From Lytechinus pictus (taxonomy: Eukaryota), in NCBI RefSeq assembly GCF_037042905.1, contig NC_087252.1:1180001-1244000 (forward strand): a stretch of 64,000 nucleotides of DNA, given 5' to 3'. A program made the translations under genes and the position numbers. Shown piece by piece: positions 2,278 through 57,499 of this stretch (positions are counted from its first letter, which is position 1; every line of letters begins with the position of its first letter). The notes below the pieces were generated by a model. That model did not search any database, was not told the origin of the DNA, and was given only the letters and a program-made list of their open reading frames with translations.

Positions 2278-2365
2278 TTAAGGGCCGCACATACCCGTTC
2301 TGCGGTTATTACGTGAGTGCCCACCACCGGCCCATTAATTCCTGGCCAAACTGAATGAGATTTAC

Positions 2366-4141: not shown

Positions 4142-4625
4142 TTTATAGAAGAAAAAAAAGTAGCGAAGGCGAAGTAAGCGAGCAAAAATTTCGACCTTTC
4201 ATTACAAAATTTAATTTTTTTGACATAACATACAGAAAACGATATCATATTTTACTTTCCTCTCTTTCCTTTTGTTTCCTCAGTTTTCTCTTTTTTTGTC
4301 ATGAAAAATGGGGGAGGGGCAAGCGTCACCAACCATCCCCCCCCCCCTCCCCTATCTGTACTGCACTGATCAGTATCCTTTTAGCCAAACGATCACCCAA
4401 CGTAGGCTAAATAAAATGTTGCAGAACCCTCGAGAATTGAAATCAACTTATAAAAATTAATATTCTCCCCATCCCTCTTAAGAATTCAACTGAATTTTCG
4501 AATTCATAACGTTTGCGATGAAGTAATTTGCTTTTCTTCTTCTCCTTTATTTTTGTTTGAAATAAATTCTGAATTTATGTGCTTATTCATTTTGCTTTCA
4601 ATCATTGATTTCAATGTTTTCTTTC

Positions 4626-7154: not shown

Positions 7155-7561
7155 TTTTTTTCTGACTTATGATTTTCATTACAGATTGAGAATGCAATTT
7201 TAAACACATAGGAGTAATGCCGAAAATTTGATTACAAATTGTAATTTCCTCCTATTAAAGCCTCTTTATTTACTATCTATTGTCCACGGCGGACTATTTT
7301 GCATATTAATGAGTCAGAAAGAAGAGGATCGAGGGTATTTGAATTCCAGGTCATCGTGACTTAGCCGTGAACCAGAATAGCCTGGTGGTTAAGTCGCTGC
7401 CCGGAAAGCAGTAGATGGCTGGTTCGAATCCCATTGGTTCCAATTTTTTCTGACTTATGATTTTCATTACAGATCGAGCATGCGATCTTAAACACATATA
7501 GGAGTAGTGCCGAAAATTTGTTTACATATTGTGATTTCCTCCTATTAAAGCCTCTTTATTT
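7155..7561 (+). repeat. A-B-A element: ~117-bp direct repeats flanking a tRNA-like sequence
   Basis: TTTTTTCTGACTTATGATTTTCATTACAGAT...CCTCCTATTAAAGCCTCTTTATTT at 7155-7271 and 7444-7561. Confidence 0.8.
7369..7440 (+). pseudogene. tRNA-like sequence (pseudo-tRNA or SINE head)
   Basis: Acceptor-like stem GAACCA/TGGTTC, A box TAGCCTGGTGG, anticodon arm CTGC-CCGGAAA-GCAG (no U33), B box GGTTCGAATCC. Confidence 0.6.
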
Positions 7562-9145
7562 GCTCCCAGACGAACGTTTGTCCTGAAGTCGTGATACCTA
7601 ATATCAATGCATGATTCGTGTCACGATGTAAACCGTGGTCTAAATCGTAGAGTAATCGTAGCGATCGTATCAGATCGTATCAGATCGTATCTGATCGTAT
7701 TAGATCTTGAGGTCAGTCGTGGCAACCGTATTGATTGTAGAAAAAAAAGTAGGACTGCTCCAAAAATTTCGCGATCAGCAACGAAAGTACAATCATAACG
7801 GATCGCACGAAAGCGGGAACAAGGTATAAAGGATATGACAAAGATGTGATTTATCTTATGAAATAAATTGCAAATTCGACCTTTTTTATGATAGATACAT
7901 TACAAATGTTCACATTATTTTTATATGGTGCCGTTTAAAAAAGAATATCTGTGTTGTTGTTTTCCTTGTTGTTGTTTTTGTTGATAAAACCAATTCTCAA
8001 GCACAGAATGATCGAAGAATTATAACCTTTATCTGTACGTAGCTTCGTGATATTCAATCACTAAATTTGTAACATAAGTGCTCAAATCTTTTGGGGTTTG
8101 TTTTCTTTTAGAATAACGGTTCAAAAACCAAAAGTTTTGATGGCCACTACATTAAAGGGGGCTTTCACGATTGCTATTGCAATCGTTTGCGTTCATTAGA
8201 TCACAATATTATTGTTGCGCACAATCGAAACGGTTGTAAGCAGTCATACCACGGTTACCACCAGTGTAAAAGGGGCTTTGAATGAGACATGATAGTAACC
8301 AACTATTAGTATATTGGCAAGCTTCAGATGGGCTTTAAATATCTGTACGTTTCTGTGCAGTGTGCGAATGAAAGGTTGCCCCCTGCTTTTTAATGATGTG
8401 TTCTCGGGGATGCACGGTCGATTACACCTATATTTTCAGAGTGAAGGGGGAAAATAATCCTAGTTTTCCCTAACATACTCTAATGAGCACAAAAAGAACA
8501 CATCCATGCGCAAACCAAACCATCACGACATCTTATTAATTTGGTTCTTCTTGATGTATTCACTGATTTCAAATCCCCAATCTCCCATAACAGATTCCAA
8601 GGTCTCTTGTTAACCATTCCTTCGTGACGTGTTGCCAGTCTCTTGATTTATCCTGATGCCTTAAAAGTGTCGGACTGGTACTTAGATTGTCATGATAGGT
8701 TTTTAATAGTGCTTCCCACTTCGCCCGCTTTCAGCCTCCAAGAATAGGCTCGGATGACTGGAAGGAAACACGAACGGACGATTTAAAGAGCCATACACTT
8801 CATGGATGTAATTTCTGAAGGTTTCCATCATCAGGACCAACATGCAAACGAAATAATACATGGTGTACCATGAAACCACTACATGTACTTGGTGAAATGC
8901 ATGGTGAGATATTTGATCTAATCATGTCGACATAATAGCCTTGTCACGGCATGTCGACATGTTTTGACACATAGAACTTTAACTTGTCAACATAGCGAGA
9001 TACGTTATCTTGCCGAGTCGACTAATAAGTACGCCGCCGTCATGGTGGGTAACGTATCTACTATATCTCGTCCTGTCGACAAAAATCGATTTATAAGTCG
9101 ACTTGGCAAGATACATATCTAGGACTAAACATGATAAGTCGACTA

Positions 9146-9309
9146 ATGCTGTAGTTACATTTACCGTACGGTGTCCGCACTGTGAGTCGAAAACAGCTTT
9201 TTACGGATTTTCATACGAACCACATACAGGAAGCTGGTACAAAAATGATAAAAAACGGCCGTTTTCGACTCACCGTACGGCCATCTTAGGCCCGATGTGA
9301 TTGCGCCAT
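9146..9309. mobile_element. Harbinger-like MITE inside a GTCGAC-rich repeat (~8920-9390)
   Basis: Ends ATGCTGTAGTTACAT and ATGTGATTGCGCCAT with TA flanks. A related right end occurs at ~36940-37012. Confidence 0.55.
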
Positions 9310-11649
9310 TAGCAGGATAATGTATATCGCCATGATTGTCGACACAGTAACGCAATCCAGTCGACATTGTATGATTTTATATCTTGCCATCTAATCAATT
9401 AGGTATGTTGCTTTAAATTACCTGTAGAAATGTTGTGTAAATAACCGACTAAAACTTCATGTTCCTATTGTAGTAACTACCTGTGTTGACCAAGAAGGAT
9501 TATGATTTAACGGGCCGTTTGTTAGCTACAATAGTTCGTGTTGAAATCACGTTTGTCACTCGGTCGGATGTTGGTGTGATGTTTATTTTAGAACATGTAC
9601 GTAAATGGTGAGAAGAATGCATCTAGTTTGAGGCTGCAAAGTATAGAGTAATCCTGTTCATTGTTCACTGGCGGACCCAGGTTTCGTGGAGGTGGGGGGC
9701 AGAAAATATTGTACCAATTACTATTTTTTTTTAAATCGCCAAGCCCTCCTTTTTTTTCTTTTGCATGAACTGCCCAAACTCTCGCAAAAATGATACAAGC
9801 AGCCCCCCTAAAAATAAATAATAGGGATGTATGAGCCCCTTTTCGTCTCCATATAGGCATAGAATGATATCAGCGGATTTCCCAAGGGGCGGCCCAGGGG
9901 CGGCACATCCGCAATATCCACCATACATGTGCAACAATAATGGTAAAATATGTCTTTATCTTGTGCACTGGGCTCATTTGTCATCTGGGGCCAGACGACC
10001 CTGTCATAGCTGATTCAGGGGGGGGGGCATTCCGTCGGGAACGCCGCCCATTTTAGATACACCAAGAGTTACGTAATTGATGCACAATACTCAGTAACGT
10101 AATGACGAAAGCATTTTCACATGTTAGAGGGGGCCAGATATGGCGAATTGAACAAAATTCCTTTACAAAAAATATGCCATAAAGGGAAGTGGGCGAGCAA
10201 AAAAAATGTGAGCCTTTGATACAAAAATCAAATCTTGTGATAGATTTTTGAAGTAATATTCATTACAATATTTACATTATATAAACCACGTTTCACAATT
10301 TTCTTTTCCTTCCCCCTTTTCTCGTATTCAATGGACGTAAAAAGTTAGGGGCCAATTGCCCCAAGCCCCCTACCTCCATACCAGTGGGTCTACCAATAAA
10401 GCTTGAATGTTTGCTTTACATGTAATTTTGTCTTTAGCAACAAATCAAATTATGGTGTTCTCTTGGAAGTATATACGGTATCTCGGTTTTAAGTGGAAAA
10501 TACAAAATGTCAAATAGTGCTCACTGCTGAGCTTTAATGCAAATTCCATGAATAATTATTAGTTTAATGTTTGATGAGAAAGCATCCCCACCTGAATCAC
10601 ATCAACCATGTCAACGCAAATCTAGAGCTCGTCTTCATGATTTGTATGAAGGAAAAGAAAAGAGAAACGGGCTGTATTTGATATTTGTAATTGGTTTTCG
10701 CACTTCAACGTTATGAAACCCCTGGGGCCTGCTATTTTGTCAACAATCTTACGGTGTATAGGCTTTCTCCCCATTCTCTTCTAAATCTTTTCCCTTCCTT
10801 TATATTGTAGTCTTTCCAAGACATTGCAAGTTAAACTAACGAACCAATAGCTTTAGGCGATCATTATATCCGATGAAAATGGCGTTCTAAACCTGCACTA
10901 GGTAGCCAGAGAGGGGGTTAACGACGGCAATTTTGTTAAGGAAATGGCGGTTTGAATGGAGACGCCTCTAGTTCCCTTCTTCGAGGAACTTCTAATTGCT
11001 TTGTGATAATTCTATCACGTGGTTTGGTGACAGGACTGGAGGAGGGGGAGACGACCGAAGTATGACGTAATTTGGTTCCTCAAAATTGAAAAATGTAGGG
11101 TATTACAAAAAATATACCGGATCGAATCATACCTCTTCCCTTGATCATACACATCTTTCTTCTTTCTTAATATCTTTACCCCCTTTTACTAACTTGAAAA
11201 AATCATAACCTATCCCCCCTTACGCCTCCCCCTGATGGACGGCAGAAACTTTTATCATCGTGGTCATATCTTCATCCCACTACACAATGCTCATTCCTAA
11301 TTATAGGCCTAATACCTTCCTATATATTCATCTGCGGCGATGGGGGGGGGGGGGCTGATCGTGTTTATGGGACAGGTGGTATCGCCCCCCCCCCTCCCCC
11401 CACCCAGAGGGACAAAAAATCTTACGAAATCGCTGCATATGAATGCTATTATGACTTTAAAAAAAATGACCTCTGCTTACCGATAGCTTGTGGTTTTATA
11501 CTTGGGAGGGGTCGTATACAGAATCTCCCCCAAATTTTCATAATATTGAGTTTTTTAAGAGGCCATGCTCTATAAAATGCATTTTTCAAAATGATACTAT
11601 TTCGAGAAATTTCGATGTACCAATGCAGTCACCATATATATAAATAAGC

Positions 11650-12057
11650 CATGCAACTTGTAGAGCTCTGTTCACAACAATGTAATCACCATGCACTTGG
11701 AGTGCTTCGTGAATTTTCAATCTCTTCTTGTCGTTGTGACTACTGACAAAGTGTGTATTTATTTTGTCTTGAAATCTGACATATTGCTTCCAAAAGCCCT
11801 TCAGAATGTTCAGGTACCGAGGATGTATATCCCATCATTAACGGATGAGTCTGTGATACAAAACAAGGCAAGGATCATCCAGAAACCTTATACTGAGCAT
11901 TACTACAAAAGGGGGTATTAAATCACGCAATCGTGGCAGTACCACGACTAAAGATCTTCATGACTTTACTCATGCAGTACTCAAGTGAAGTGCCCTTTTT
12001 CCTTCTCGTTGCAGCTTTGTATTTAATGTCATCATCTAAGGTGATTTGCATCTTCAT
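11650..12057 (-). pseudogene. Possible degenerate B-box (TRIM-like) remnant
   Basis: Across frameshifts and stops: ITLDDDIKYKAATRRKK..EYC / HEDL*SWYCHDCVI / P.C, resembling B-box Cys/His spacing. Confidence 0.25.
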
Positions 12058-12069
12058 GGCTATTGCCTA

Positions 12070-12256
12070 CACTGTTAAAAACGACATTAAAAAAAATAAG
12101 TATGTGGGTTAAACATGTCACTTTAACATTATTTAAAGTTTTAATCAAGTTGTTTTAACAGTTTAACAATTGAAAAATAAAGATAATTGTTTGATAGTTT
12201 AGATAACATATTTTTGGAGTAAGGGGCTTAAACTTTCAAACAACGATTTTACAGTG
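12070..12256. mobile_element. MITE with CACTGT termini and TA TSD
   Basis: ta-CACTGTTAAAAAC...GATTTTACAGTG-ta. Related AACAATTGTTT-rich copies at ~49150-49370, ~54620-54845 and 56952-57170. Confidence 0.7.
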
Positions 12257-12383
12257 TAGGCCTCCTATGACTTGAAAGAGGAGGGGGAGGGTGAAACTGA
12301 AGAAAATAGTAAGTAGGGGCGACGCTGAAGGGGGCAGGGGAGTCTGTGAGAAAATGGAGAAATGAGACTGAAAGGCATGTAAA

Positions 12384-12600
12384 GGTTTTGTGGCTCAGTG
12401 GATAAGTCTTAGGACTTTGTACCACAAGATCCGGGGTTCAAATCCCATCGCAGCACTAGCGTCCTTTGGCAAGGCGTTAATCTAGATTTGTAAATTGATA
12501 TCCGGTTCCGTGAATGCTCGAGCGCCCGATAAAGCCGTGCTAAAGCCAGGGTAATAGTAGGCCCTATGAAGCGCCTAGCGCTGTACATGTATGTTGCATT
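12384..12600 (+). mobile_element. tRNA-derived SINE
   Basis: A box TGGCTCAGTGG, B box GGTTCAAATCC, core GTCCTTTGGCAAGGC. The 3' part GCTAAAGCCAGGGTAATA is shared with the copy at 62557-62735. Confidence 0.75.
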
Positions 12601-13018
12601 ATGAAAAGGGAGAGTTTCATCGTTTCAGTTCTCTAGTACCCTTTATCATTTAATTGCGAACAATGGCAGCATTTTGAGGTCGTCGTCCCCGCGTCCCATC
12701 GTACTTCACTTACACCCCTCCCCCCCGATTTCGTATATTGTCATTATTTCGTTTGGTCTTTTTCACTGCAAATACCGGTAAACCTAAGTAGGTTTGGGTC
12801 TAATTTTATGATACCAGGGTTATCCTTCTTCAGGCCGAACACATTTAGTCTAAAATTAATTGGGTCTAACTGGTTATATGTGAAACAACAAAGCTAGGTC
12901 ATCTCGCCAATTGAACTACTGCAATGTTTGAATTTGTATGATTATACAGTAAAAAAGACACTCAATCTCAGTCGAGCGCATGATATGTTTTATACATTAA
13001 TAATATTACGCTGGTTAA

Positions 13019-13405
13019 AGGGGATGTTCAACCTGAAGAAAAAGTAATAAACAATATTGGTGCAGGTTTGAGGAAAATCCGTTAAAGATAAAGAAAGTTA
13101 TAAGAACTTTAAGTTTTGGATTTGTAACGTCATAAACAAGCAGCTGCCAAAAAACATTTGTCTATTGATATACAAAAAGCACAGTAAAAGCCATTTTTAA
13201 TTTTCTGAGAAAATGAATTTTCATTGATTTTTTTTACCATTCGGTATGTAGGATACTGCTCGCATATGACTTCATCCACAAATCCAAAACTTAAAATTCT
13301 AATAACTTTCTTAATCTTTAACGGATTTTCCTAAAACCTTCGCCAATGTTTTTATTTTTTTCTGCTATTTTTACAACAAACTTTTCTTCAGGTTAAACTT
13401 CCCCT
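13019..13405. mobile_element. Complete Kolobok-like MITE, origin of the tandem array
   Basis: ttaa-AGGGGATGTTCAACCTGAAGAAAA...TTTTCTTCAGGTTAAACTTCCCCT-ttaa. TTAA TSD, purine-initial termini, long imperfect inverted arms. Confidence 0.8.
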
Positions 13406-16400
13406 TTAAATCTTTTTAAAAACATGATGATAAGTTCCACGAATGACTTTAAGTATTCCAAAGTACGACAGGCTTTATTTTGAGATTATATTATCGTTTA
13501 TGATTTTATATCTATGTTTTGGAGCCACACGCATGTACTAAAAAAACTGTATTGACGAAGACAGCGAATATAAAGTCAATTAAAAATCATTAAATCTCAG
13601 TTTTATGATTACAATCATTTTAATGTTTATTTCATTTTTCTTTTGTAATATTTTGTTGATGTCCCTTTGATATTTTCCACAGATATTGGTAATGTTGGGT
13701 AAATTTTTCGTATATCTTGTTATGTTTGCCCATGAAAACAAAGTATAGGAATATATGTATCAAATTGTTGTACCGTAAATTCAGTCAGTGTTTGAGTGCT
13801 AATTTTCATCCGAAAGATGCCATAAATATTGTAATCATGGTAATCAATGTCATATAGTGTAGTAGGTTTCACAGTGCATCAATAATCAATGTCCTTTAAA
13901 AAAACTGAAAAGGGTGTTTTAATAAAAACAAAAAAAAAGTTAGCTTGCCTTCTAAGCTGTAGTTGCACATCCATGCTCTAGACTGTACCAAAATTATTGG
14001 AAGCCAACAATGTCAAAAGTTTTTCTTGTCAAATTACTAAGACCCTTTTCATGTTTTATTGGTAAAGAACTGTTGTTTATGTAATTCTACCAGATTTATT
14101 TTATCACAAATTTGGATGTGAAATTAGGTGCTGATAATTTAATTTATTCCTTTCAGCTTGTAGGACACATTTGGCTCCCCATAATAATCATAAATTTGAA
14201 CCACAGTTTAAGCTTGACCTGGGTACAGAATACGGACTAAAAACATACACACTACTAACGTATTTCTAGCTAGGAATGTAGAAGAATTAACTTTGACGAA
14301 AATCCGTTAAAGATAAAGAAAGTTATAAGAGTTTTAAGTTTTGGATTTGTAACGTCATAAACAAGCAGCTGCCAAAAAACATTTGTCTATTGATATACAA
14401 AAAGCACAGTAAAAGCCATTTTTAATTTTCTGAGAAAATGAATTTTCATTGATTTTTTTTACCATTCGGTATGTAGGAATACTGCTCGCATATGACTTCA
14501 TCCAATCCAAAACTTAAAATTCTAATAACTTTCTTAATCTTTAACAGATTTTTCTCAAACCTTCGCCAATTTTTTGTTATTTTTTTTGCTATTTTTACAA
14601 CAACTTTTGTTCAGGTTAAACTTCCCCTTAAATTTTTTTGAAAACATGATGATAAGTTCCACGAATGACTTTAAGTATTCCGAAGTACGACAGGCCTCAT
14701 GTTGACATTTGTTATCGTGTATGATTTAATATGTCTATGTTTTGGAGCCACACGAATGTACTAAAAAAAACTGTATTGACGAAGACAGCAAATATAAAGT
14801 CAATTAATAATTATTAAATCTCAGTTTTATGATTACAATCATTTTTAATGTTTATTTCATTTTTCTTTTGTAATATTTTGTCGATATCCTATTGATGTTT
14901 TCCTCAGATATTGTTAATGTTGGGTAATTTTTGTTTATATCTTGTTATGTTTGCCCATGAAAATATAGGAATATATGCCTTCAACTGTTGTACCGTAAAT
15001 TCAGTCAGTGTTTGAGTACTAATTTTCATCTGAGAGGTGACATAATTATTATAATCAATTTCCTACCCAAAAAATGAAAAGGGTGTTTTAATAAAAAAAA
15101 AAAAAAAGTTAGCTTGCCTTCTAAGCTGTAGTTGCACATCCATGCTCTAGACTGTACCAAAATTATTGGAAGCCAACAATGTCAAAAGTTTTTCTTGTCA
15201 AATTACTAAGACCCTTTTCATGTGTTAATGGTAAAGAACTGTTGTTTATGTAATTCTACCAGATTTATTTTATCACAAATTTGGATGTGAAATTAGGTGC
15301 TGATAATTTAATTTATTCCTTTCAGCTTGTAGGACACATTTGGCTCCCCATAATAATCATAAATTTGAACCACAGTTTAAGCTTGACCTGGGTACAGAAT
15401 ACGGACTAAAAACATACACACTACTAACGTATTTCTAGCTAGGAATGTAGAAGAATTAACTTTGACGAAAATCCGTTAAAGATAAAGAAAGTTATAAGAG
15501 TTTTAAGTTTTGGATTTGTAACGTCATAAACAAGCAGCTGCCAAAAAACATTTGTCTATTGATATACAAAAAGCACAGTAAAAGCCATTTTTAATTTTCT
15601 GAGAAAATGAATTTTCATTGATTTTTTTTACCATTCGGTATGTAGGAATACTGCTCGCATATGACTTCATCCAATCCAAAACTTAAAATTCTAATAACTT
15701 TCTTAATCTTTAACAGATTTTTCTCAAACCTTCGCCAATTTTTTGTTATTTTTTTTGCTATTTTTACAACAACTTTTGTTCAGGTTAAACTTCCCCTTAA
15801 ATTTTTTTGAAAACATGATGATAAGTTCCACGAATGACTTTAAGTATTCCGAAGTACGACAGGCCTCATGTTGACATTTGTTATCGTGTATGATTTAATA
15901 TGTCTATGTTTTGGAGCCACACGAATGTACTAAAAAAAACTGTATTGACGAAGACAGCAAATATAAAGTCAATTAATAATTATTAAATCTCAGTTTTATG
16001 ATTACAATCATTTTTAATGTTTATTTCATTTTTCTTTTGTAATATTTTGTCGATATCCTATTGATGTTTTCCTCAGATATTGTTAATGTTGGGTAATTTT
16101 TGTTTATATCTTGTTATGTTTGCCCATGAAAATATAGGAATATATGCCTTAAACTGTTGTACCGTAAATTCAGTCAGTGTTTGAGTACTAATTTTCATCT
16201 GAGAGGTGACATAATTATTATAATCAATTTCCTACCCAAAAAATGAAAAGGGTGTTTTAATAAAATAAAAAAAAAGTTAGCTTGCCTTCTAAGCTGTAGT
16301 TGCACATCCATGCTCTAGACTGTACCAAAATTATTGGAAGCCAACAATGTCAAAAGTTTTTCTTGTCAAATTACTAAGACCCTTTTCATGTGTTAATGGT

Positions 16401-25400: not shown

Positions 25401-27210
25401 CGACTTTAAGTATTCCGAAGTACGACAGGCCTCATGTTGACATTTGTTATCGTGTATGATTTAATATGTCTATGTTTTGGAGCCACACGAATGTACTAAA
25501 AAAACTGTATTGACGAAGACAGCAAATATAAAGTCAATTAATAATTATTAAATCTCAGTTTTATGATTACAATCATTTTTAATGTTTATTTCATTTTTCT
25601 TTTGTAATATTTTGTCGATATCCTATTGATGTTTTCCTCAGATATTGGTGATGTTGGGTAATTTTGTTTATATCTTGTTATGTTTGCCCATGAAAATGTA
25701 GGAATATATGCCTTAAACTGTTGTATCGTAAATTCAGTCAGTGTTTGAGTACTAATTTTCATCTGAGAGGTGACATAATTATTATAATCAATTTCCTATC
25801 AAAATACTGAAAAGGGTGTTTTAATAAAAACAAAAAGGTTAGCTTGCCTTCTAAGATGTAGTTGCAACTCCATGCTCTAGACTGTACCATAATTATTGGA
25901 AGTCAACAATGTCAAAAGTTTTTCTTGTCAATTTACTAAGACTCTTTTCATGTTTTAATGGTAAAGTACTGTTGTTTATGTAATTCTACCAGATTTATTT
26001 TATCACAAATTTGGATGTGAAATTAGGTGCTGATAATTTAATTTATTCCTTTCAGCTTGTAGGACATATTTGGCTCCCCATAATAATCATAAATTTGAAC
26101 CACAGTTTAAGCTTGACCTGGGTACAGAATACGGACTAAAAACTTACACACTACTGACGTATTTCTAGCTAGGAATGTAGAAGAATTAACTTTGACGAAA
26201 ATAAAGATAAAGAAAGTTATAAAAATTTTAAGTTTTGGATTTGTAACTTCATTAACAAGCAGCTGCCAAAAAACATTTGTCTATTGATGTACAAAAAGCA
26301 CAGTAAAAGCCATTTTCAATTTTCTGAGAAAATGAATTTTCATTGATTTTTTCCATTCGGTATATAGGAATGCTGCTCGCATATGAGTTCATCCAATCCA
26401 AAACTTAAAATTCGAATAACTTTCTTAATCTTTAACGGATTTTCCTCAAACCTTCGCCAATGTTTTATTATTTTTTCTGCTATTTTTACAACAACTTTTC
26501 TTCAGGTTAAACTTCCCCTTAAATTTTTTTGAAAACATGATGATAAGTTCCACGAATGACTTTAAGTATTCCAAAGTACGACAGGCTTTATTTTGAGATT
26601 TTATTATCGTTTATGATTTTATATCTATGTTTTGGAGCCACACGCATGTACTAAAAAAATGTATTGACGAAGACAGCGAATATAAAGTCAATTAATAATC
26701 ATTACATCTCAGTTTTATGATTACAATCATTTTAATGTTTATTTCATTTTTCTTTTGTAATATTTTGTTGATGTCCCTTTGATATTTTCCACAGATATTG
26801 GTAATGTTGGGTAAATTTTTCGTATATCTTGTTATGTTTGCCCATGAAAAAAAAGTATAGGAATATATGTATCAAATTGTTGTACCGTAAATTCAGTCAG
26901 TGTTTGAGTGCTAATTTTCACCTGAAAGATGCCATAAATATTGTAATCATGGTAATCAATGTCATATAGTGTAGTAGGTTTCACAGTGCATCAATAATCA
27001 ATGTCCTTTAAAAAAAACTGAAAAGGGTGTTTTAATAAAAAACAAAAAAGTTAGCTTGCATTCTAAGCTGTAGTTGCAAATCCACGCTCTAGACTGTACC
27101 ATAATTATTGGAAGCCAACAATGTCAAAAGTTTTTCTTGTCAAATTACTAAGACCCTTTTCATGTTTTAATGGTAAAGAACTGTTGTTTATGTAATTCTA
27201 CCAGACTTCT

Positions 27211-27744
27211 CCCGATACTCCCCTTCTAGCATACCGACGCCCACCGAATCTCAGGGACCTCATTGTTCGTGCTGAAGTGCCCTCCCTCACTAACCATTCT
27301 TCTCCCATACAGCATGGCACCTTCAAATGCACCAGCAACAGGTGCATCATATGTGAAATACACCTTCACGAGGGCGATACTTTCACCAGCAACTCTACCA
27401 GCCTGTCTCACCAAATCAAGGGCAACATCACATGCACTACCACTAATGTTGTATATCTCATCACTTGCAGAGTTTGTAGGGTACAATACATAGGGGAAAC
27501 CAAGACCACACTCAAGAAACGATTCTACGGGCACAGATCCACCGTCAACACAGCAAAGCTGGACACTCCAGTTGGCCGCCATTTTAACCTCCCCAACCAC
27601 TCCATCACTGACATGATGCTACAGGGCATCGAATCTTTAGGTACCCGTCCTGACTCAGTCCGTACTAGCAGGGAGAAGCTCTGGATGAGACGACTTCGCA
27701 CCACCCAACCTCATGGCCTGAACATCCAAGAGGGGAACGACTGA
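27211..27744 (+). CDS. C-terminal part of Penelope pol: linker, Zn knuckle, GIY-YIG endonuclease (no true start codon)
   Basis: Frame extends upstream of the track ORF as PDTPLLAYRRPPNLRDLIVRAEV, then CTSNRCIIC, VVYLITCRVCRVQYIGET, RFYGHR, PVGRHFN..H, REKLW, PHGLN. No internal stops. Confidence 0.9.
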   Translation, partial: PDTPLLAYRRPPNLRDLIVRAEVPSLTNHSSPIQHGTFKCTSNRCIICEIHLHEGDTFTSNSTSLSHQIKGNITCTTTNVVYLITCRVCRVQYIGETKTTLKKRFYGHRSTVNTAKLDTPVGRHFNLPNHSITDMMLQGIESLGTRPDSVRTSREKLWMRRLRTTQPHGLNIQEGND

Positions 27745-33255: not shown

Positions 33256-34661
33256 TCAATAATCAATGTCCTTTAAAAAAAACTGAAAAGGGTGTTTTAA
33301 TAAAAAACAAAAAAGTTAGCTTGCATTCTAAGCTGTAGTTGCAAATCCACGCTCTAGACTGTACCATAATTATTGGAAGCCAACAATGTCAAAAGTTTTT
33401 CTTGTCAAATTACTAAGACCCTTTTCATGTTTTAATGGTAAAGAACTGTTGTTTATGTAATTCTACCAGACTTATTTTATCACAAATTTGGATGTGAAAT
33501 TAGGTGCTGATAATTTAATTTATTCCTTTCAGCTTGTAGGACACATTTGGCTCCTCATAATAATCATAATTTTGAACCACAGTTTAAGCTCGACCTGGGT
33601 ACAGAATACGTACTAAAAACTTACACACTACTAACGTATTTCTAGCTAGGAATGTAGAAGAATTAACTTTGACGAAAATCCGTTAAAGATAAAGAAAGTT
33701 ATAAGAATTTTAAGTTATGGATTTGTAACGTCATAAACAAGCAGCTGCCAAAAAACATTTGTCTATTGATATACAAAAAGCACAGTAAAAGCCATTTTCA
33801 ATTTTCTGAGAAAATGAATTTTCATTGATTTTTTTTTTACCATTCGGTATGTAGGAATGCGGCTCGCGTATGACTTCATCCAATCCAAAACTTAAAATTA
33901 TAATAACTTTCTTAATCTTTAACGGATTTTCCTCAAACCTTCGCCAATGTTTTATTTTTTTTTTTTGCTATTTTTACAACAACTTTTGTTCAGGTTAAAC
34001 TTCCCCTTAATTTTTTTTGAAAACATGATAATAAGTTCCACGAATGACTTTAAGTATTCCGAAGTACGACAGGCCTCATGTTGACATTTGTTATCGTGTA
34101 TGATTTAATATGTCTATGTTTTGGAGCCACAAGCATGTACTAAAAAAACTGTATTGACGAAGGCAGCGAATATAAAGTCAATTAATAATCATTAAATCTC
34201 AGTCTTATGATTACAATCATTTTTAATGTTTATTTCATTTTTCTTTTGTAATATTTTGTCGATATCCTATTGATGTTTTCCTCAGATATTGGTAATGTTG
34301 GGTAATTTTTTCTTATATCTTGTTATGTTTGCCCATGAAAAAAATATAGGAATATATGTCTCAAATTAATGTACCGTAAATTCAGTCAGTGTTTGAATGC
34401 TAATTTTCATCTGAAAGATGCCATGAATATTGTAATCAATGTCATATAGTGTAGTAGGTTTCACGGTACACCGGTAATCCATGTCCTATCAAAAAAAACT
34501 GAAAAGGGTGTTCAAATGAAAACAAAAAAATTAGCTTGCTTTCTGAACTCTAGTTGCAAACCCATGCTCTTAGTCTGTGCCAAAATTATAGGAAGCCAAC
34601 AATGTCAAAAGTTTTTCTTGTCAATTTACTGAGACCCTTTCATGTTTTAATGGTGAAGAAC

Positions 34662-34842
34662 CAGGGACCTGGGAACGTTTTTACTGGGGTGCTGATGTAA
34701 ATTGTTGACAAGCAAAAAAATAAAGTGTAGGTCGTTTTTGTTACATTTCTCCATTTTGTCAAACCGTCCAGAATTTCAGGAGGTGCTGCCTATGGAGAAT
34801 AATACACGCAGCACCCCAACACTCCCGCTTCCCAAGCCCGTG
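34662..34842. mobile_element. hAT-like MITE in the last array unit
   Basis: Ends CAGGGACCTGGGAA and TTCCCAAGCCCGTG. Degenerate 8-bp TSD TGAAGAAC/TCAAGAAT. Unit sequence resumes after it. Confidence 0.7.
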
Positions 34843-37469
34843 TCAAGAATTACTGTTCTTTACGCAATTCTAACTACATTTTTTTTCACAAATTTGGATG
34901 TGAAAGGTGCTGATAATCTAATTGATTCCTTGACACATTTGGCTTCCAATAATAAGACCAGATGAATACGGAATATCTGGAGATCCCAGAGAAAACTTTA
35001 TTCAGTGTGCCTTATTGGTCTTTGGAGTGAAATGAGTTCTGATACGAAGCTGAAACCAACTGAATAACTTTTTGAATGATGCTATTCTAACCCTCCTTAA
35101 TCGCCTTCTCAAATTCAAATGATCGCAAACGAGTCTGAAGCTGATGTTTACCTGGTATCTTTATGATTCTATTCAGTCCTTAATCCCTCTATTTTCAATA
35201 AAGAATAAGGATACGTTTGATTTAAATAGCTTGGTCGTTATCTGTCGCGTGAATAAACGCTTTACAATTATATCTTGGCAACATCTCTTGTTCCGATTGG
35301 GCACTTTGGTATCGATCAGTAATATCGATTAGGGAAGGAGTTGACAGTTGGCAATGCGCACGTTTACTCCACAGGAGAATGAGATTTAATTAAACTTTCC
35401 TTCTGAAAATAAAAACAGCGTGGTTATACTGAAAGCAAAAATGGACATCCGTATTTTAACGCCAAATATCATCTTTGAGTAAGGGTATAACATTAAGACT
35501 CATCCCATTGCAATTTTTTATTTATATGACTAAATACTATATAGTCTTGATTGGATGTTAGTAATTACATTTCCTAACCAGCCTTTTCTTCAGTCCATTT
35601 CACACGCTCATAATCATACCAAATCTAGCTCTGACAACTTATGATGAAAATATGTCTTGTAATAAATTGAAAGAGATATATAATAAATTTGAATTTGGAT
35701 TTCGAAAAAGGTATTAACCCCATGGCAGCCCAAAGCTAAATTGGGTGGAATTTACATCACATGATGATAATATAATACAACAAATAAATCAATAATATGC
35801 ATATAAAAATCGTAACATCTTCAAGTAATAACTTACGATTGGTGAAAGGAAGGAGAAAGAAAGAAATCCAGAAAAAGGAGATGAGATTGAGCAAATCTGT
35901 TTAAAGTTACTGGGACAAAATTCACGGAAAGTCATACTAAGTTAACTTGTTAATTTGATTCGGCTGTTTCATAACATGACGTATTTCAAATTAGTTTCAT
36001 ACTTTTTCTTTAACGATTTCTAATTTGACTTTACCTTTAAAGATACCTCCGCCAATATCGACGTATCAATCATCATCTTTCACTACATTGACAATGACCT
36101 TTGACCTCTTACATGGTCGCCCAGGTGGTAATATCAGAAAGGGAGAAATTCATGAAATATTAACATTTGATGACAGACATTTATTGACATTCGAAGATTC
36201 GAGTTTATTTTGCTTATAATAGAACCGCGCTACACCTTATTTTTCATTCCAAATACCGAGATCCAGTAAAATAATAAACCAGATACTGAGGTATTGTATA
36301 TCAGTTTGGGACTTTTAATAGAATGATTTATGTATAAAGAGATTCCCTCGCATGCACAAGTGTCTTAACTTTTTTTTTCTTTAAGTTAATGCCCATTTAG
36401 CTCTCTCTCTCTTTCTCTAAAAAAAAATAGATCTGAGCCACACTGTTAGAAAATTTATCCTTAAAATAAAAGAAGTTCCTGCAGCAGAGTCTCGAGAACA
36501 CCTGTAGTCTTAATACCAGATTGCGTAATCTTACATTATATCATTTAAAATTACAGGAAATTGGTATTTGGTGTATGAAACCTTACAAATTTCTTGTAAT
36601 AAAACACCCTTTTCCCCTTTTTAAACAGACCTGTTCTGTTAAATTGCAGAAAAATTCCTGTTTTATGAATTTACAGAATGATTCTGTTATTGCTTTCTGC
36701 AAAATCTTCCTTTTTCCTGTAAAATCAGGGGTTTGACAAAATATTGTTTGACAAAATCCTGATCATCTGCTGTGTGTTACATAATTATTAAAGACTTAAT
36801 GCTCCTCTTTAAAAAAATCCATGATTTTACAGCTTTCTACTGGCTTCTTAGTGTACGCCCTCTCTGGAAGAAAAATATATAATCCTTCAGTCCCATTTCC
36901 CCCACTGTCGCCCTTTTATCTGATTTTATTCAAACCCCATGTATGTCGCTGGTAAGAACGGCTATTTTCGACTCGCTGTACGGCGACCGTAGGGGAAATG
37001 TGACTGCGCCATTCATACATTAGAGAGAGAATCAGTAGTCGGGAAGCCAATGTTGTGTTATTCACTATTGAGAAACATATATTTTAATTGAAGTAAACAA
37101 CCATTTTCTTAGAACATGGGCCCGTATTCCATAAACGAGATAAGCATGCTTAAGTCAAAAATCTAAGCATTTTGTCTTATTTTCTGTCTAAGACAAAATT
37201 CTTAGCCAAAACGCGTATTCCATAAAGAATTGGCTAAGAATTTTGTCTTAGAATTTGGCTAAGAGGTTTTGCGCGACTAAGACAGATATAGGATGAATGG
37301 CTAAGTAACTTTTCTAAAAATTGCAGAGTCTGTATTTCATAAATACAACATGGCTAAGAATTTAGCCCTAACTTTAAGACAGGTGTGAGTTGTCTTAATT
37401 GCTTTAAGACAACCTGGTTTAAATCCAACAAATCATGGCCAATTTTTTTTTAGAATTTATACCTATATT

Positions 37470-38830
37470 GCATTTCGAGCTACTTCCTCAGTTTTTAACC
37501 GATTTTCATGAAATTTGGAACACACATTGGTCTTAAAGTAAGGAGGTGTGAGAAATTTTTTTTTTGCTTTTTCAGAAATTGTGTTGCCATGGTAACAGTA
37601 TATTATGGCCAAAATTTAAAATTTAAATTACTTCATCAGTTTTCTACCAATTCTCATGAAAGTTGGCTCACACATTGGATTTGAGGAAAAGATGTGCAAG
37701 ACACAATTTTGCATGTGTTGGAAATTGTGTTGCCATGGTAACAGTATATTATCTTGCTATTCCAACTACTTCCTCAGTTTTTAACCAATTCTCATGAAAT
37801 GTGGCACAAACATTAGTCTTGATGTGAAGATGTGCAAAACATATTTTATGCCTATATAAAAAAAAAATGCGTTGCCATGGTAACAACATATTAAATAACG
37901 AAAATTAGGTGAAAAATTTGTGGTTTTAACAAGTTTATAATATTTCAACCACTTCTCATGATGTTTGCCACAAACATAAGTCTTGAGGTAAAGATGTGCA
38001 AGACACATTTTCGCATGTGTCGGAAATTGTGTTGCCATGGTAACGGTATATTAGGGCAAAAATTATGTAAAAATCTTGCAGTTCCAACGACTTCTTCAGT
38101 TTTTAATCAATTCTCATGAAATGTGGCACAAACGTTAGTCTTGATTTGAAGATGTGCAAAGTATATTTTATGCCTCTATAAAAAATTGCGTTGCCATGGC
38201 AACAAATAAAATAACAAAAATTAGATGAAAATCTTGTGATTTGAATTACTTCATCAGTTTTCAACTGGTCAATTCTCCTAAAATGTTGGCGCACACAATA
38301 GTCTTGAGTTGAAGATGTCTAAGATATACTTTTGCCTGTATCAGATTCGGGTTGCTATGGTAACATATTATATAACGAAAATAAGGTGAAAATCTTGTAG
38401 TTCGAACTCCTTCATCTTTTTTCAACCAATGCTCATGAAATTTGGCACACACAATAGTCTTGAGTTGAAGATGTGCAAGACTATTTTTGCCTGTATCAGA
38501 AATCGTGTTGCCAAGGTAACAACATATTATATAAAGAAATTAGGTGAAAATCTTGTGGTTTGAATCCCTTTATCAGTTTTACCAATTCTTATAAAAGTTG
38601 GCTCACAAATTGATTTTGAGGTGTAGATCTGCAAGACATATATTGGAAAATGTGTTGCCATAATAACAGCATATCAGATCAATAAATGTGTAAACAGCAT
38701 GATGTGTATTGAACTACTTCTTCATTTTATGACATTGGCCTATATGTCCATGAAATGTAGGTTTTGAGCTAAAATAATCTGCAAGACACATTTTCTCATT
38801 CATCAAAATATGTGTTTGTATGATAACTAC
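37470..38830 (+). repeat. Degenerate ~140-160 bp tandem repeat, about 9 units
   Basis: Recurring ACTTC(C/A)TCAGTTTT...TCATGAAA..TGGCACA...AAGATGTGCAAGAC...GTTGCCATGGTAAC. Confidence 0.85.
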
Positions 38831-38879
38831 ATGTATACGCCAAAAAAAGATTAAGACAATGGTCAATGCTAACTTTTGT

Positions 38880-40300
38880 TTGGCTACATAGAGAACTACA
38901 TGTAGCTGAGGGCTTAGTTCTAGTTTTTTTTTTTTTTTTTTTTTTTGGGGGGGGGGGGGGGCTAGACCTCAAGATTTCGAACTACAGCCCCTAGTTTAGA
39001 TCTAAGCCTAGATCAAGATCCTTTAGTCCTAGAAATAATCAAATGCTAGATCCCTAGCCTACTTCCTTTCTCAGGCCTAACGTTAGATGAGTAGAACTAG
39101 ACTAGATCTAGCCTACATTTACTATTTTTAGATTTAGAATCTACATTGAGATAGAGTCTACAAGTCTCTAGATCTAGACCTATTACTATGACCCTATGTA
39201 CACCTAGATTGGTATAGTTCTAGATCTAGATAGGGTCTAACTTTTAGTCTAAGTGAGTAAGTCATTTAGTCTAGATCTAGGCCTAGGTTAGAGATTTCTA
39301 GATCAAACAGTAGACTAGATCAGCCAGTCCTAACGTTAGGGCTACCGGATAGGCTAGAAATAGAATCTAGAATGAATAGAAGAAAGCACAGGCTAGGCCG
39401 CCTAGGCCCTAGATCTAAATTCTTATAGGATAAATCTAGGCCCTAGGCCTAGTCTAGACTGAGCTGTTGCCAGTGTTGGTCTAGGTTTAGGCCTGTTTTC
39501 TAGTCCTGGAAACCTAGATCTAAACAAGTCCTCAAAATGTATAAAATAAAAACTCCAAACGAACAGATGGACCTAAAAAAAGCAGGAGTAGATCTAGATA
39601 GATGTCTTACTGCGGCAGCCCGAACACGTACTGTGACTGTGTCTAAAGACGTCGTGTCGAGGTCCCCGGGGCAAGATAGATGTCTAGACTACTACTAGGA
39701 CTAGATCTAACTTTAGGCATAGTTGGCAAGCAATGCGTAGCGATAGATCTAGCACTGTTGACAGGAATAACCGTCGTTTCTGGGGATTTATTTAAAAGTT
39801 TCTGACATTTACTGTCATATCACATTGGTGAGACTAGGCCAAAGTAACGTTAGATTGTTTAGTGTCGTACTCGTAATAGCGGAACAACCAAAATACAGTC
39901 GGAGACTGAAGCTTTTGGTCTAAGTCAGATCTATTCTAGACCTACATGTAGATCTAGATAGATCTATCCCTGTCTTAAGGCTAAGCCAGGCTAAGTCCTG
40001 CATGTTCTAGGCCTAGACCAATACTAATATAGGTCTATCGTTAGATCTAGGCCTAGGCCTATGTAGCTTCAGTCTCAGTTGCTCCACTACGGCACTAGAC
40101 TAACAAAGTTACGTTTTGCTTCAGCCTTCAGGAAAGTAAAAAGTAAAAACAATGTTCAATTCTCCTCCAAACAGACGGATATTAGTTGTAGATCTTGGGC
40201 CTAGGCTAGATCTAGGCCTAATGTTAGACCCAAGACTAGTCTCAAAAGTTACAAATGTTTTCCCTTAGACCCTAGGTCTACTTCAACTGAAGTAGAATAA
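38880..40300. other. Island of TA-flanked short palindromes
   Basis: By eye, at least a dozen TAGATCTA, about six TAGGCCTA, several TAACGTTA and TACATGTA, and many TAGACTA/TAGTCTA, with no periodicity. Confidence 0.85.
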
Positions 40301-41482
40301 AGATGTCGAGAGGAATCTATTCCATTTAGATTTTGACAAACAATACATGAAAAGTAATGAATGGGACTGATACATAAAAAACTGTGCAAGTCACTCTGTT
40401 TGGGATTGAAATGTTTTGGTAATTAAAAATATATAGATAATCTGAATAAAAAATTCTTACCATATATGGGTGATGAATGCTCTTCTTCTACTACAATAGT
40501 TGTAATTAGTTTCAATAAAATCAAACTTGTTAAGAAAAAACAACTTCAATGACATTTTTGCTATTTTGTTGCAGTCACCCCTGCAGCAGTTTAGAAGGTC
40601 ATAGGATTTGACTTTGAGACTTTGGCTTAGCCATATCGTCTGACTTGAGACAAATGTCTTAAAGTTTATAGAATATCCTTAGGGAAGATTTCTTAGACAA
40701 GCAAAATGCTAAGACAAATTGCTAAGACTTAAGCAAAAAGCTTATCTTGTTTATGGAATACGGGCCCTGAAGCCATATACATCTATATACATTTTAAACA
40801 TTTCCGGCTTGTAGAAGATTTTCCGCCTTTCATTACATCTCTCATCCTTGCAAATAATTTGTGCCCACACGAATAAATCTAGATAATGAGGCTATAAATA
40901 CTTTTAATTACCAATGTTCGTCAATTGAATAAAATACCCTGTATATAAAAAGCCAACAATTTCAAGTGATCCGAATATAGACATCTTTATTTTGTTTGCA
41001 GCGCACCCCTCGCGATTGGCTTTGTCAACAAAAGAAGACAACTCGGAAAAATTGACTTATTTCGCCTTCAAATCACATGACCATTCATGCGCGGACAATA
41101 GGGGGTACATTAGTGAACACACGACAAAATTAGTATCTGATGAGTGGATTAATTGAATGGAATTGTTACATACTTGTCTGGACACTAATCCACTTGAAAT
41201 ACAGAAGGCTGGCCTCCAGGTCTGATGCAAGTATTGAGATGTTTTTAGATCATGTCAAAAAGAATAAAGAGGATTAATAATTGAAGTATTGTTCACTTTT
41301 TGTTAACGCCTCAGACAAGAAAATCGAATGATTTGATCTATAGAGCGCATACCAGTCTAGTCAAACAATCGTTTAGCGAATTTAAAGGGCTTCTTAAAAT
41401 GTGTGTTTATTTGAAAATGGGACTTTAATTAGGATCTTGAGAGGTGTTCATTCACCAATACTATCGTAATCATCATAGGAAA

Positions 41483-41597
41483 CATGACCCCTTCCCTACC
41501 ACGCCGAGGAACCATGACCCCTTCCCCACCACGCCGAGGAACCATGACCCCTTCCACTCCACGCCGAGGAACCATGACCTCTTCCCCACCACGCCGA
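41483..41597 (+). repeat. 30-bp minisatellite, about 4 copies
   Basis: CATGACCCCTTCCCCACCACGCCGAGGAAC repeated with minor variants. Confidence 0.95.
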
Positions 41598-41694
41598 AGC
41601 CCTCAAAGATCCAATGTAGTAGGAAAAAAACACACAGGCTCACTTCATGATTTTAATCATTTTATTGAAAATAAACTCACCATAAAACCCATTC

Positions 41695-42075
41695 TCATCA
41701 TCATCATCACCATCATCACCGTCATTTTCATCTTCGTGACTATTATTATTATCATCCCCATCATGATCCTCACCACCACCACCACCACCATCACCATCAT
41801 CACCATCATCATCATCACCACCACCACCACCACCACCATCACCATCATCACCATCATCATCATCACCACCACCACCACCACCACCACCACCATCATCACC
41901 ATCACCATCATCACCATCATCATCATCATCACCATCACCATCATCACCATCATCATCATCATCATCATCATCACCATCACCATCATCACCATCATCATCA
42001 TCACCATCATCATCATCACCATCATCATCATCGTATCATCATCGCACCGTCATAAACCTTGTCACCATCACCACT
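41695..42075. repeat. Compound (CAT/CAC)n microsatellite
   Basis: Directly visible. Accounts for the poly-I/T and poly-M/V ORFs. Confidence 0.97.
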
Positions 42076-47459: not shown

Positions 47460-47724
47460 CACTGGCATACTAACAGATGAGGTACTCAGGGGCTATGGAC
47501 CCCAAAAAGTTTTCACGACCAAAAAAAAAAGAACATGAAAGAAAACGAGAGAAAAGGGGAGAAATATGCATGATATTACTCTTTGAACAGTATGTCAAAA
47601 TCTATCACAAAATCAGATTTTTGTATTAAAATGGTTACTTTTGTTCACTCGCTTCAGCTTTCAATAATTGTTTGCCCCATATGCCCTATCGTACCCGCTC
47701 AGAATTCGGGCCATTACGCTACTG
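47460..47724. mobile_element. hAT-like MITE
   Basis: Ends CACTGGCATA and TACGCTACTG. Imperfect 8-bp TSD ATCTATAG/ATCTACAA. Relative at ~42510-42784. Confidence 0.6.
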
Positions 47725-48149
47725 ATCTACAAGATCCTTTTGTAGATTTATTTTTTCATTTTCATTTTTGTTTTTTTTTTTTGGGGGGGTCTTTATTGTG
47801 TCATTTTCTCAAAATATATAATCGCTACCCAGAGGGAAAATGACTTTTTAAGACAGTACAAAAGTTTGTAGATTTTTCTTATTATTTTGGAGGGTTGACG
47901 TTAATGAGGGATTATGGTAGGAATGATGACCCCTTTCTTTTTTATTTGCTTGTCAAAAAATATTGACGGGGAAACCGCATATGTCATGAATGAGGTGACT
48001 TTTAATTGACCTCTGTCTGGCTCTCAGATTTTTAAAGGAAAAAGTGGGCCCCTTTTTTAGGGGGTGGCTCCTTCTCAAGGGGAGCCTGGATCCACCATTA
48101 GTTCCTCTTTTAAATAATCTTTCATTCCTAGGAGCATTTCCTTTCAAAT

Positions 48150-48402
48150 CAGTAGCGAAATGAGCCAAACAAATTTGAGGGGGCTAGATTTGGCGTATTG
48201 GGCGGAATTTATTAAAAGTTGCAAACAAGCGAAGTGAACGATCAAAAATTTACAAATACCCTAATTTTGTGATAGATTTTGACATAATATTCAGAAATAA
48301 TATTATATTTCAACCCTTATCTCTTTCCTTTTTTCTTGGTCGTGAAGATTTTTAGGGGGCAAGCGCCCCAGCCCCCCCCCCCCCCCCATATGTACGCCAC
48401 TG
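48150..48402. mobile_element. hAT-like MITE
   Basis: Ends CAGTAGCGAA and TACGCCACTG. 8-bp TSD TTTCAAAT/TTTAAAAT. Confidence 0.7.
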
Positions 48403-54393: not shown

Positions 54394-56951
54394 CTGAAGG
54401 ACGGTGGCTCGTGAAAGTTGTCAGCACTGGCAAATTCGGTGACGTCCTTTGATTTGATTTAGCTGGGAGGCACTCATCTCTTATTGTTACCATGGTATTT
54501 GAGAGAGAATGATAACTTGTCAAGCTTCATGATGTAGCATCGGAGACTGGGGAGTGTTTCATGAAAAAAAATAATTAAAAACAATATGAAAGGACTTGCC
54601 GGACGTTTCATAACCTACTAAAAATGTTGTTTAATATTTTATACAGCGTTGTGTACAATATAAACCTTAAGAGTAGTTTAACAGTCTAAACAATCATGCT
54701 TAATTTATAGACAATTATATATTAATAGTCAAACCTTGTTGGTTAAGATTTTAAACAATTGTTTAGACCGTTTAAGCAACTAATATAAGGTTCTAATATA
54801 TAGCAAACAGCGTTAAAAAAAATAAACCAACTTTTTTTCTGTGTAGACAAATATTTTCGTTGCTGTGGTTAGAGCATGAGCCTGGTTAGAAATGTTAAAG
54901 ATAAGGATTCGATCCCCGAAATGGCATCTATGCCCTTTTGCGGGGCATTTATCTATAAATGAAAATGATAAATTTGACATGATGATGATTTAGTGTCGGT
55001 GTATGTACGTGCTTAATAGGTCCTTGAAAATCTCTACCAGATAAATACGATCTAATCCGGTGCTCGGTTCTCAGCCAGTTTCTGATGGATTTTAGCACTG
55101 CCTTATTAACTCATGATTTGATTACTCACAAGGATAACTGCTAATCAAATAACATAATTAAATTACTCGAGTCCTTCATTAATAATTATTAGATGAGTTT
55201 AGGCGGATCATGACAGACTAATTATTCTACCGCCGGTGGACAAATATTTGCTCGATGTTGCCTCAATTACCGTTTACTATTTTTTCGTAGGGGCGGCCCC
55301 CTTTTCTCTCGAAAAACTTGACTTTAAATCAATATTAAACAGGACCGATATTTAATGTTTTATTTTATACCGTCTTTATTCTCATATACCGTCTATACAC
55401 CTCATTCAACGGTTAATGATAATCCAGAGAAGACGATACGGTGCAATGAAAAAGAATTTCAAAGAAAGAAAAGACTCCTGCAAAATAAAGCAACATAGAA
55501 TACATTTCAAGTAATAAAAAACGAAGTACTATGTCTTGGCCATTAAGTATTTTAAGGTAAAATATGATACAAACTAGAAAACGATTCATTACTTTGACAA
55601 TGGGAGGTGTGGCGTTATTATCAACACATCAAAGCTGAGCTCACATTTTGATTTGCTTCAAACATGGGTTACATTAGCTTCAGAATTCAAGGCCATCTAT
55701 TCGATAAAAAGCAAGCTGATCTTGAACTTGAACTAGAAACCCACAGTGTCAAAGATCGTAATCTATGATGCTGAATAAGAACCCAGGATGGTCTTCTAAT
55801 CATACACATCGACCCATCGGCCAAAACTAGCTAAATACTCAAAGAATTATTGGGGCAACCGAAAACAAATTAATCGAATGCCGCGGGATATACATCTGTA
55901 TTGAAAAGGAAATCGATTTGGGGATTATAGAGGATTAAAAAGGTGCTTTGTTCGCGCCACAATGTAACCAGACACCAAATTATCAAAGGATGTAATTTTG
56001 TTCAGTTACTGAAGTTCCATCAACGCGTGCGCTATAAGAAATCGATGTATTATTACTCGCTGTTTGAACCATGATTATACATGTAGATGGTATCTCCATG
56101 TTTGCATTTTTAAGCAATTGTTAGTCGAAGAAAGAAAAAAAGGCCGGTCAAACATATGAGAAGGGTAGCCGTTGGACCCTTTTGAATGCTTTATTTATAT
56201 ACATTTTGTTTAATTAATAGAACTATTTCAAATGAATTTAGTTAATGACTGTCCACTTTTGAAGTACTTTCATTAGTTTTTTCCCTTTTTTACATCGATG
56301 ATATTGTAAAATCCCAAAATGAATTTAAGCCTCCAAACTCAATCGAAATTGATATTCATACAAAACTCTCATAAAAGCATAACAATGTAAGAATAGCATT
56401 CTCGAGGCTTGCATCAGTAGCCCTGATTACATCGTAAGCAGCTATCTATTAAAATGTACATGTTCAATGATTGTTTGTTTGTCTGGATTTTTGTTTGTTT
56501 TTGTTCAAATACACGATGATAATAGACCCGTTTCCTGGTATTGTTGGATATGGCAGCGAAGGTTCTGTTAGCTTACCCTTATTGTTTATTACTTCATATT
56601 CACAAACCAATAAATTTGCCACCACGCTGCCTCGACTGTCATTATTAGACCGTGAATGAGGTCGTGCATATTTAATCATTCATCTAAATAAAACAAAAAA
56701 ATATTTGAACGATTTTGATTCACTCCGCAATGTGGTAGAAAACATACTTTGATGATTATAATGACGTAACAAAAAACATGCAGGCTGGGGCGCATGGGCG
56801 GTGCGATGGAGGGGCAAGGGACGACCGACCTCATGATTTTTAAAGGAGTGAAAAGGGAGGAAAACGAAGAAATGGTAGGGAGAAGGGGAATTAAAAAAAA
56901 CAAGAAGAGTATAAAAACGAAAGGTAGACTTATGCGTCTTGTAATGTTATA

Positions 56952-57170
56952 CACAATAAAAACGATGTTTCAAAATTTAAACAACGCTGTTTATTATAAA
57001 CCTTACAAAATTTGTATCTCTTATTTATTGAGAGTTAAATATTCAAATTTGAACTTTGCTGTTTACGATTTAATAGATTTCAAGCAATTGTTTAAACTGT
57101 TTAAACAACTATTGTAATGTTCATATAGTAAATAACGTTGTATAAAATTCTAAACAGCGTGTTTCTTGTG
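56952..57170. mobile_element. MITE with CAC...GTG termini and TA TSD
   Basis: ta-CACAATAAAAACG...GTGTTTCTTGTG-ta. Confidence 0.6.
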
Positions 57171-57499
57171 TAGTACACCTGTTATTCAACTCAGAAATAA
57201 CATGACGTCATTGTTAAGTCGTCTTCCCCCCCCCCCTCCCCCATAAAAACTTCCTACTGCCTCCCCCTGCTCACAAAATGGCAATGAATGGTGGCTAACC
57301 ATGCATACGTATCATTAAGGAGCTTCAAACAGACCATTTATTAGCAATTTGTAGATGTTTGATTCATGTGAATGTCAGAACCAAAAAAAATATTGCGAAA
57401 CCTCATGGTTCTCTTTCAATGAACGTGTACAAAACGTGAAAATCATCATCTACTGTTTTTGTTCATGGTCAGCCCACACCCCTCGGTATAATGTCATTA

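Follow-up and report, generated by a model that had tools for sequence, protein, structure and literature searches.

The window, which is the whole 64-kb stretch of DNA analysed here, contains a transposon-like element, referred to below as the carrier, that is composed of two arms, a satellite and a field of short TA-anchored words (Table 1). The carrier is bounded by 28-bp inverted repeats (37118-37145 and 40740-40767) that are 96% complementary, and it is read with a 3-bp target, ATG on the left and CTG on the right. The left arm features a perfect 23-bp hairpin at 37187-37252. The ~158-bp units of the satellite contain a conserved palindrome, GTTGCCATGGTAAC, which we take to resemble an RFX X-box. 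No ORF of at least 100 aa is present in the carrier, and no transposase or Myb/SANT ORF was identified within it. The available portions of PMC4482050 describe NuwaI, of the PIF/Harbinger (PHIS) superfamily, with which the carrier shares short inverted repeats starting with G and a CTG to the right of both copies, as for a CWG target; no empty site was seen. The carrier differs from NuwaI in being non-autonomous, in its ATG left target, in the absence of a transposase or Myb/SANT ORF and in holding a satellite and a word field as cargo. The 64-kb window holds no second copy of the carrier, of the field or of the short element within the field.

Table 1. Coordinates of the carrier, its parts and associated features in the window
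Feature	Coordinates	Strand	Remarks
Non-autonomous TIR element, Harbinger/NuwaI-like (carrier)	37119..40766		3.65 kb, 3-bp target reading
Left arm	37119..37455		sub-terminal CTAAG/TAAGAC repeats
Nine diverged ~158 bp units	37465..38840	+	satellite within carrier
TA-anchored word field	38828..40280		chains of up to five words, 6-bp register
T23-G15 run	38924..38961	+	inside field, at left edge
78-nt segment	39608..39685	+	12-bp direct repeat at bounds; absent from near-identical copy (X1, X2, X23)
High-copy short element, internally deleted copy	39760..39920	+	ends TA-GAC...GTC-TA
Right arm	40281..40766		common to other subfamilies with different interior
MITE	56950..57172		ends TA-CAC...GTG-TA; older second copy near 54614-54845

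Between 38880 and 40300 there are 25 palindromic TA-NNNN-TA words, made up of 14 TAGATCTA, six TAGGCCTA, three TAACGTTA and two TACATGTA; the other 12 of the 16 palindromic words of this form have a count of zero there. The first-pass annotation had described a dense field of such palindromes, and this is borne out by 1000 dinucleotide shuffles of the same interval, which gave 1.16 on average and never more than 6. Its placing of the field inside an element with terminal inverted repeats also stands in that the 28-bp arms are real, whereas the limits had to be redrawn to ~38828 and ~40280. Moving the start to 38820 adds one TACATGTA, for 26 exact words in all, a density of ~18 per kb. The extended field contains these 26 exact and 18 one-mismatch 8-mers (0.25 and 3.0 in shuffles) as well as 11 7-mers, and the words cover 383 of its 1481 bases. 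The 7-mers include the reverse-complement pairs TAGACTA/TAGTCTA and TAGGCTA/TAGCCTA. The first of these pairs had also been singled out earlier, and as a class TAG[AT]CTA is enriched (7 against 1.11 in dinucleotide shuffles, maximum 6), but neither TAGACTA (4, shuffle maximum 4) nor TAGTCTA (3, shuffle maximum 5) alone exceeds its shuffle maximum. The excess is seen for the TA-N4-TA class, with 55 in the field against 17.8 in shuffles, and not for TA-N3-TA (18 against 17.7) or TA-N2-TA (7 against 17.9).

The field is the only part of the carrier with exact words, since none occurs in 37100-38799 or 40300-40800, and the satellite and arms beside it offer 131 TA sites without one. Units 1-8 of the satellite lack an exact word, and unit 9 ends with a single TACATGTA at 38828. 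TAGATCTA is absent from the remaining 62.6 kb of the window. In 38 kb of background (1-13000, 34600-37118, 40768-41440 and 42100-64000), TACATGTA occurs nine times against 0.87 expected, including two close pairs (120/135 and 63331/63353), TAGGCCTA occurs twice against 0.26 expected, and both TAGATCTA and TAACGTTA have a count of zero, so the word spectrum of the field is unlike that of its surroundings. As regards a possible CpG island or methylation effect, the CpG observed/expected ratio is 0.45, or 0.28 after masking, but TpG and CpA are not raised.

Rfam returned four matches to the sequence, every one far below the gathering score, and a sigma-70 promoter scan, a model that is not relevant to an animal, predicted no promoters. 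The viral collection gave 10 matches to a 15-mer and the metagenomes gave 35 matches to the right inverted repeat, none of them with a field or an extended match; the longest of these matches is 25 nt and the best E value is 0.005. One scan of a prokaryote collection gave two matches, and further collection scans gave none. Literature searches covered the words, Tc1 and lancelet footprints, urchin open-chromatin motifs, and urchin and amphioxus indels; among the matches listed, which lean towards open access, the titles and abstract openings contain no account of such fields, and keyword look-ups within some of these papers gave nothing relevant either.

Four of the 24 listed public sequencing runs (X1, X2, X10 and X23) were compared with 38965-41440. 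A near-identical copy (~99%) of the carrier with its field is present in X1 and X2 at another locus. The X1 pieces exhibit two substitutions and no gap over 39021-39348, nine gap letters without a substitution over 39350-39503, and 10 substitutions with 20 gap letters over 39763-40769; by arithmetic, six of these 20 letters are extra in the window and 14 are extra in the other copy. One X1 contig follows the carrier to 40769 and then enters a different flank, where CTG again lies on the right, and the depth of both X1 and X2 is about zero beyond 40790. The flank change and the loss of depth show that the carrier occupies two or more loci. In X23, RNA reads have the variants of the other copy (12/12 at 39561 and 25/26 at 40678) at a depth of ~5-25 over the field copy, which indicates low-level transcription; neither their starts nor their ends pile up. 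GT-starting motifs near 39609 and 39828 might suggest a first exon, but this reading gained no support, since 15 of the 24 joint rows include no GT..AG joint and starts do not accumulate. X10 holds the right flank of the window with 22 substitutions and 37 gap letters in 570, and its relatives of the field are older, with ~85-94% identity and many gaps. Right-arm pieces begin at 40289-40313 in X1, X2 and X10, and X1 has a loose end before 40313.

Of the differences between the two young copies, only the 78-nt segment could be read clearly, and it is not a footprint; its absence is read from a joint that leads from 39577 to 39674 with 14 letters between. The segment is CpG-rich, and in X1 one portion of it, with a loose end at 39635, matches a different repeat. 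Among 12 of the 159 indel rows, none has an exact word that one copy contains and another lacks. A 6-letter gap directly after TA at 39503, weakly supported by one X10 contig and one X23 read, does not spell an exact word. The near-identical field at another locus means that the field predates the last move of the carrier and was inherited as cargo. The pile of words was thus complete in an ancestor, and the carrier has since taken it to at least two loci, which removes the ground for the earlier view of the present locus as an insertion hotspot. The field is most likely neutral cargo. As cargo, its density informs on the ancestral donor site and not on the present location.

Within the field lies a copy of a short element found at very high depth in X10: two bins reach 141,231 and 63,904, compared with 42 for the flank, although these depths are not copy numbers. 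Matches to it are bounded by TA on both sides. The last two letters of the loose-end consensus to the left of 39760 are TA in X2 (13 contigs), X10 (68 contigs) and X23 (306 reads), the three runs with such a row; apart from this TA the consensus is mixed, with an agreement of 0.42-0.45. On the other side, matches end behind the TA at 39921-39922 (6 in X2, 49 in X10 and 236 in X23; agreement 0.38-0.5). Joints connect both ends of the short element in all four runs. The left TA reads TT in the window copy; position 39759 is A in X10 (26 contigs, 9456/9456 depth) and T in the window and the X1 copy. The inverted terminus is only 3 bp (GAC/GTC), the fold z is -1.08, and a small hairpin is present at 39896-39908. 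Because it has no long terminal inverted repeat, the short element is not Tc1-like in build. Its ends had no matches in the viral and prokaryote collections, and the available portions of PMC5753468 and PMC4455052 give no terminal sequences that classify it.

Two bases kept from each GAC..GTC end give TAGATCTA, and three bases of one end give TAGACTA or TAGTCTA; the field has 37 exact 8- and 7-mers, of which these three words make up 21. The match to the commonest word could be due to chance, at about 1 in 16 given two terminal bases and inverted ends. The TAACGTTA at 39845, inside the short element, is ambiguous, as the family consensus already has AACGTA in a by-eye alignment. Source elements with termini matching the words had been anticipated, and the search for them succeeded in part: GA..TC ends are found in the short element and CA..TG ends in the MITE, but for GG..CC and AC..GT the seven rows inspected in the 64-kb window yielded no confirmed element. 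Two of these rows are chance pairs in the field, two lie in a 16-bp repeat array, one lies in a foldback, one is a weak 4.6-kb pair and one is the CAC MITE. Judged by its terminal sequence, the MITE is a possible source of the CATG word. CAC...GTG ends may, however, belong to a superfamily that leaves none of its own bases behind.

TACATGTA is an excision product of Tc1/Tc3, and Tc1-type elements had been proposed as sources of the words. In the accessible text of PMC6943129, a Tc1/mariner footprint is made of 2-4 bases from the start or end of the element, flanked by TA on both sides, and that of PMC12632400 gives +4, TATGTA/TACATA, as the usual C. elegans Tc1 footprint. The field is similar in its order of TA, terminal bases and TA, with the added bases lying between two TA without dependence on the flanking sequence, and its 7-mers form reverse-complement pairs like the two footprints of Sleeping Beauty in the same portion of PMC6943129. 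The main product here is instead +6 (a self-complementary 4-mer, or 2+2 bases), the field stacks four families of words, and the +4 forms are not enriched in the field, nor in the background (13 and 9 against 14.6 each). Since the candidate source, with only 3 bp inverted, lacks the terminal inverted repeat of Tc1/mariner, the field is not classed as Tc1 footprints, and the proposal of Tc1-type sources is not supported. Non-autonomous Cryptons, as described in the available parts of PMC3212892, PMC8969392 and PMC13465315, recall the short element: they have no TIR of any length, every copy is flanked on either side by an identical short direct repeat, and hairpins lie near the ends. They differ in that their repeat is 4-6 bp and not the 2 bp (TA) seen here; no recombinase gene was seen, and those parts of the three papers do not describe Cryptons as leaving footprints.

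The arrangement of the words bears directly on how the field was built. Words are chained through shared TA, as with five words at 40030-40061 or the overlapping words of TAGATCTAGGCCTAGGCCTA at 40042-40061. A degenerate hexamer microsatellite (TAGATC/TAGGCC), grown by slippage and then point-mutated, would account for the 6-bp spacing that dominates successive TA gaps (n=53) and for the one perfect repeat, TAGGCCTAGGCCTA at 40048, and at the settings tried the counts of 26 exact and 18 one-mismatch words came out closer in the slippage runs than in the insertion runs. It is nevertheless very improbable. Among 16 in-register neighbour pairs (at most one mismatch), 13 differ and three are possibly the same word, one of them letter-identical; several pairs differ at 3-4 of the 4 core bases, the 14 exact TAGATCTA never stand next to each other, and TRF detected no array over the field. 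Simulated slippage produced 0.84-0.89 same-word pairs, and none of 150 runs in each of three settings (0/450) fell to 3/16 or below. Simulated independent insertion at TA produced 0.35-0.38 same-word pairs, with P 0.05-0.12 for 3/16 or fewer, so that the observed share is close to the lower limit of what the insertion runs allow. Because neighbouring words are mostly different, slippage is rejected and independent insertion at TA fits, in agreement with the first-pass annotation. The identity of a word is also independent of its flanks (9/26 fold-back-compatible against 9.6 permuted), which rules out fold-back copying of the flanks. None of the 26 words has flanking direct repeats of 4, 5, 8, 9 or 10 bp, and P-like scars with their own target duplication (4-10 bp flanking repeats) are ruled out with them. 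From flank independence and the missing flanking repeats, the unit of change is best read as TA to TA-word-TA, and the field is very probably a pile of fixed-word insertions anchored at TA.

Such insertions could also be made without a transposon, if host repair or replication placed fixed words at TA, for example by end joining at TA/CTAG breaks that adds a self-complementary 4-mer. This is considered rather unlikely, even though all four cores are palindromic, two of the four words are without a confirmed source element and no transposase was found. To our knowledge, no repair enzyme adds such words; only 4 of the 16 palindromic cores are in use, the flank independence described above means that the words were not copied from neighbouring DNA, and a TA-flanked element with fitting ends exists. 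A selected cluster of protein-binding palindromes, a promoter or enhancer captured or used by the carrier, would be consistent with the sharp borders of the field and with its ~99% conservation in a copy transcribed at a low level in X23. That conservation equals the conservation of the arm and so reflects recent copying, the four cores are unrelated with only the TA frame in common, and the X23 reads lack a pile-up at starts or ends. Older relatives also differ by many gaps, with 157 gap letters per 162 substitutions (0.97) in eight field pieces against 21 per 75 (0.28) in four arm pieces; these ratios come from 8 + 4 of the 24 displayed pieces, which are not independent, and the gap excess of the field pieces is weak since the sole flank piece has a still higher ratio, 37 per 22. 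Taken together, a protein-binding cluster is improbable. The T23-G15 run at the left edge could point to an assembly or library artefact, but the field is found nearly letter for letter in three independent runs (X1, X2 and X23), which refutes an artefact for 38965-40769 and leaves it a negligible probability overall.

Returning to TA-anchored insertion, we lean towards reading the words as excision scars. Elements that target TA would have inserted and then excised, leaving 2+2 or 3 terminal bases, and each such event would turn TA into TA-GATC-TA, TA-GGCC-TA, TA-ACGT-TA or TA-CATG-TA, or into a form one base shorter. The commonest words would come from the TA-GAC...GTC-TA family, a candidate that still has a copy in the field, and naming such a family for the commonest word opens the claim to tests by allele comparison. 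The context of the chains suggests how the targets may have been chosen. C precedes the chain in 17/27 cases and G follows in 14/27, against 0.13-0.15 for background TA; together 31 of the 54 chain flanks are C-before or G-after, and the field contains 50 CTAG. Uniform targeting did not reach 31/54 in any of 120 simulations in each of three settings, whereas 2.5-69% of runs did so when each side was given a 2- to 4-fold preference and 100-150 events were simulated, under a simple C-TA-G model that assumes a background-like starting sequence. The density of TA in the field is only ~1.4 times that outside (166 in 1481 against 1825 in 21900), and added TA alone is therefore too little to explain the confinement of the words. 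Self-reinforcement through added TA alone, as first proposed, gives way to a C-TA-G target preference, which fits better in these simulations. GATC and GGCC words begin with G and end with C, and the preferred C-TA-G context is thereby rebuilt. Under the simple model, a TA preceded by C and followed by G would be the preferred target, and scars that rebuild both sides would draw further scars.

A more specific version is offered tentatively and may well not hold: an abundant GAC...GTC family without long inverted repeats would prefer C-TA-G and leave TAGATCTA, TAGACTA or TAGTCTA, and its fields would be autocatalytic, about half scars, and spread by other transposons. If so, each scar would double its own preferred target, with 100-150 events in the best-fitting runs, and the element families that had visited a given piece of DNA could be read from its word spectrum. 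Excision traces are normally too scattered for counting. Should the words be scars, the field would provide a countable record, per family, of insert-and-leave cycles, and would exemplify a source of short insertions that build new non-coding DNA.

The near-identical copy (39021-40769) was found with the same variants in runs under two organism labels, A and B, and runs labelled C contain the flank of the window but only older relatives of the field. This split could be explained by labelling, run type, filtering or horizontal transfer. Elsewhere in the window, a tandem array occupies 13015-34600, with at least 14 copies of units of ~1.17-1.23 kb at 89-99% identity, and it starts from a TTAA-flanked inverted-repeat element at 13015-13409. 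Inside the array, a stop-free frame of 182 codons on the + strand (27196-27744) presumably resembles the GIY-YIG endonuclease end of a Penelope-type retroelement. Nested inverted-repeat elements are present at 3432-4144 and 47500-48358, the former with a foldback at 3590-3822 and the latter with the nested arm pair 47500-48358 / 47584-48293. In the region 41477-42043, a 350-bp trinucleotide array comes after four 30-bp repeats.
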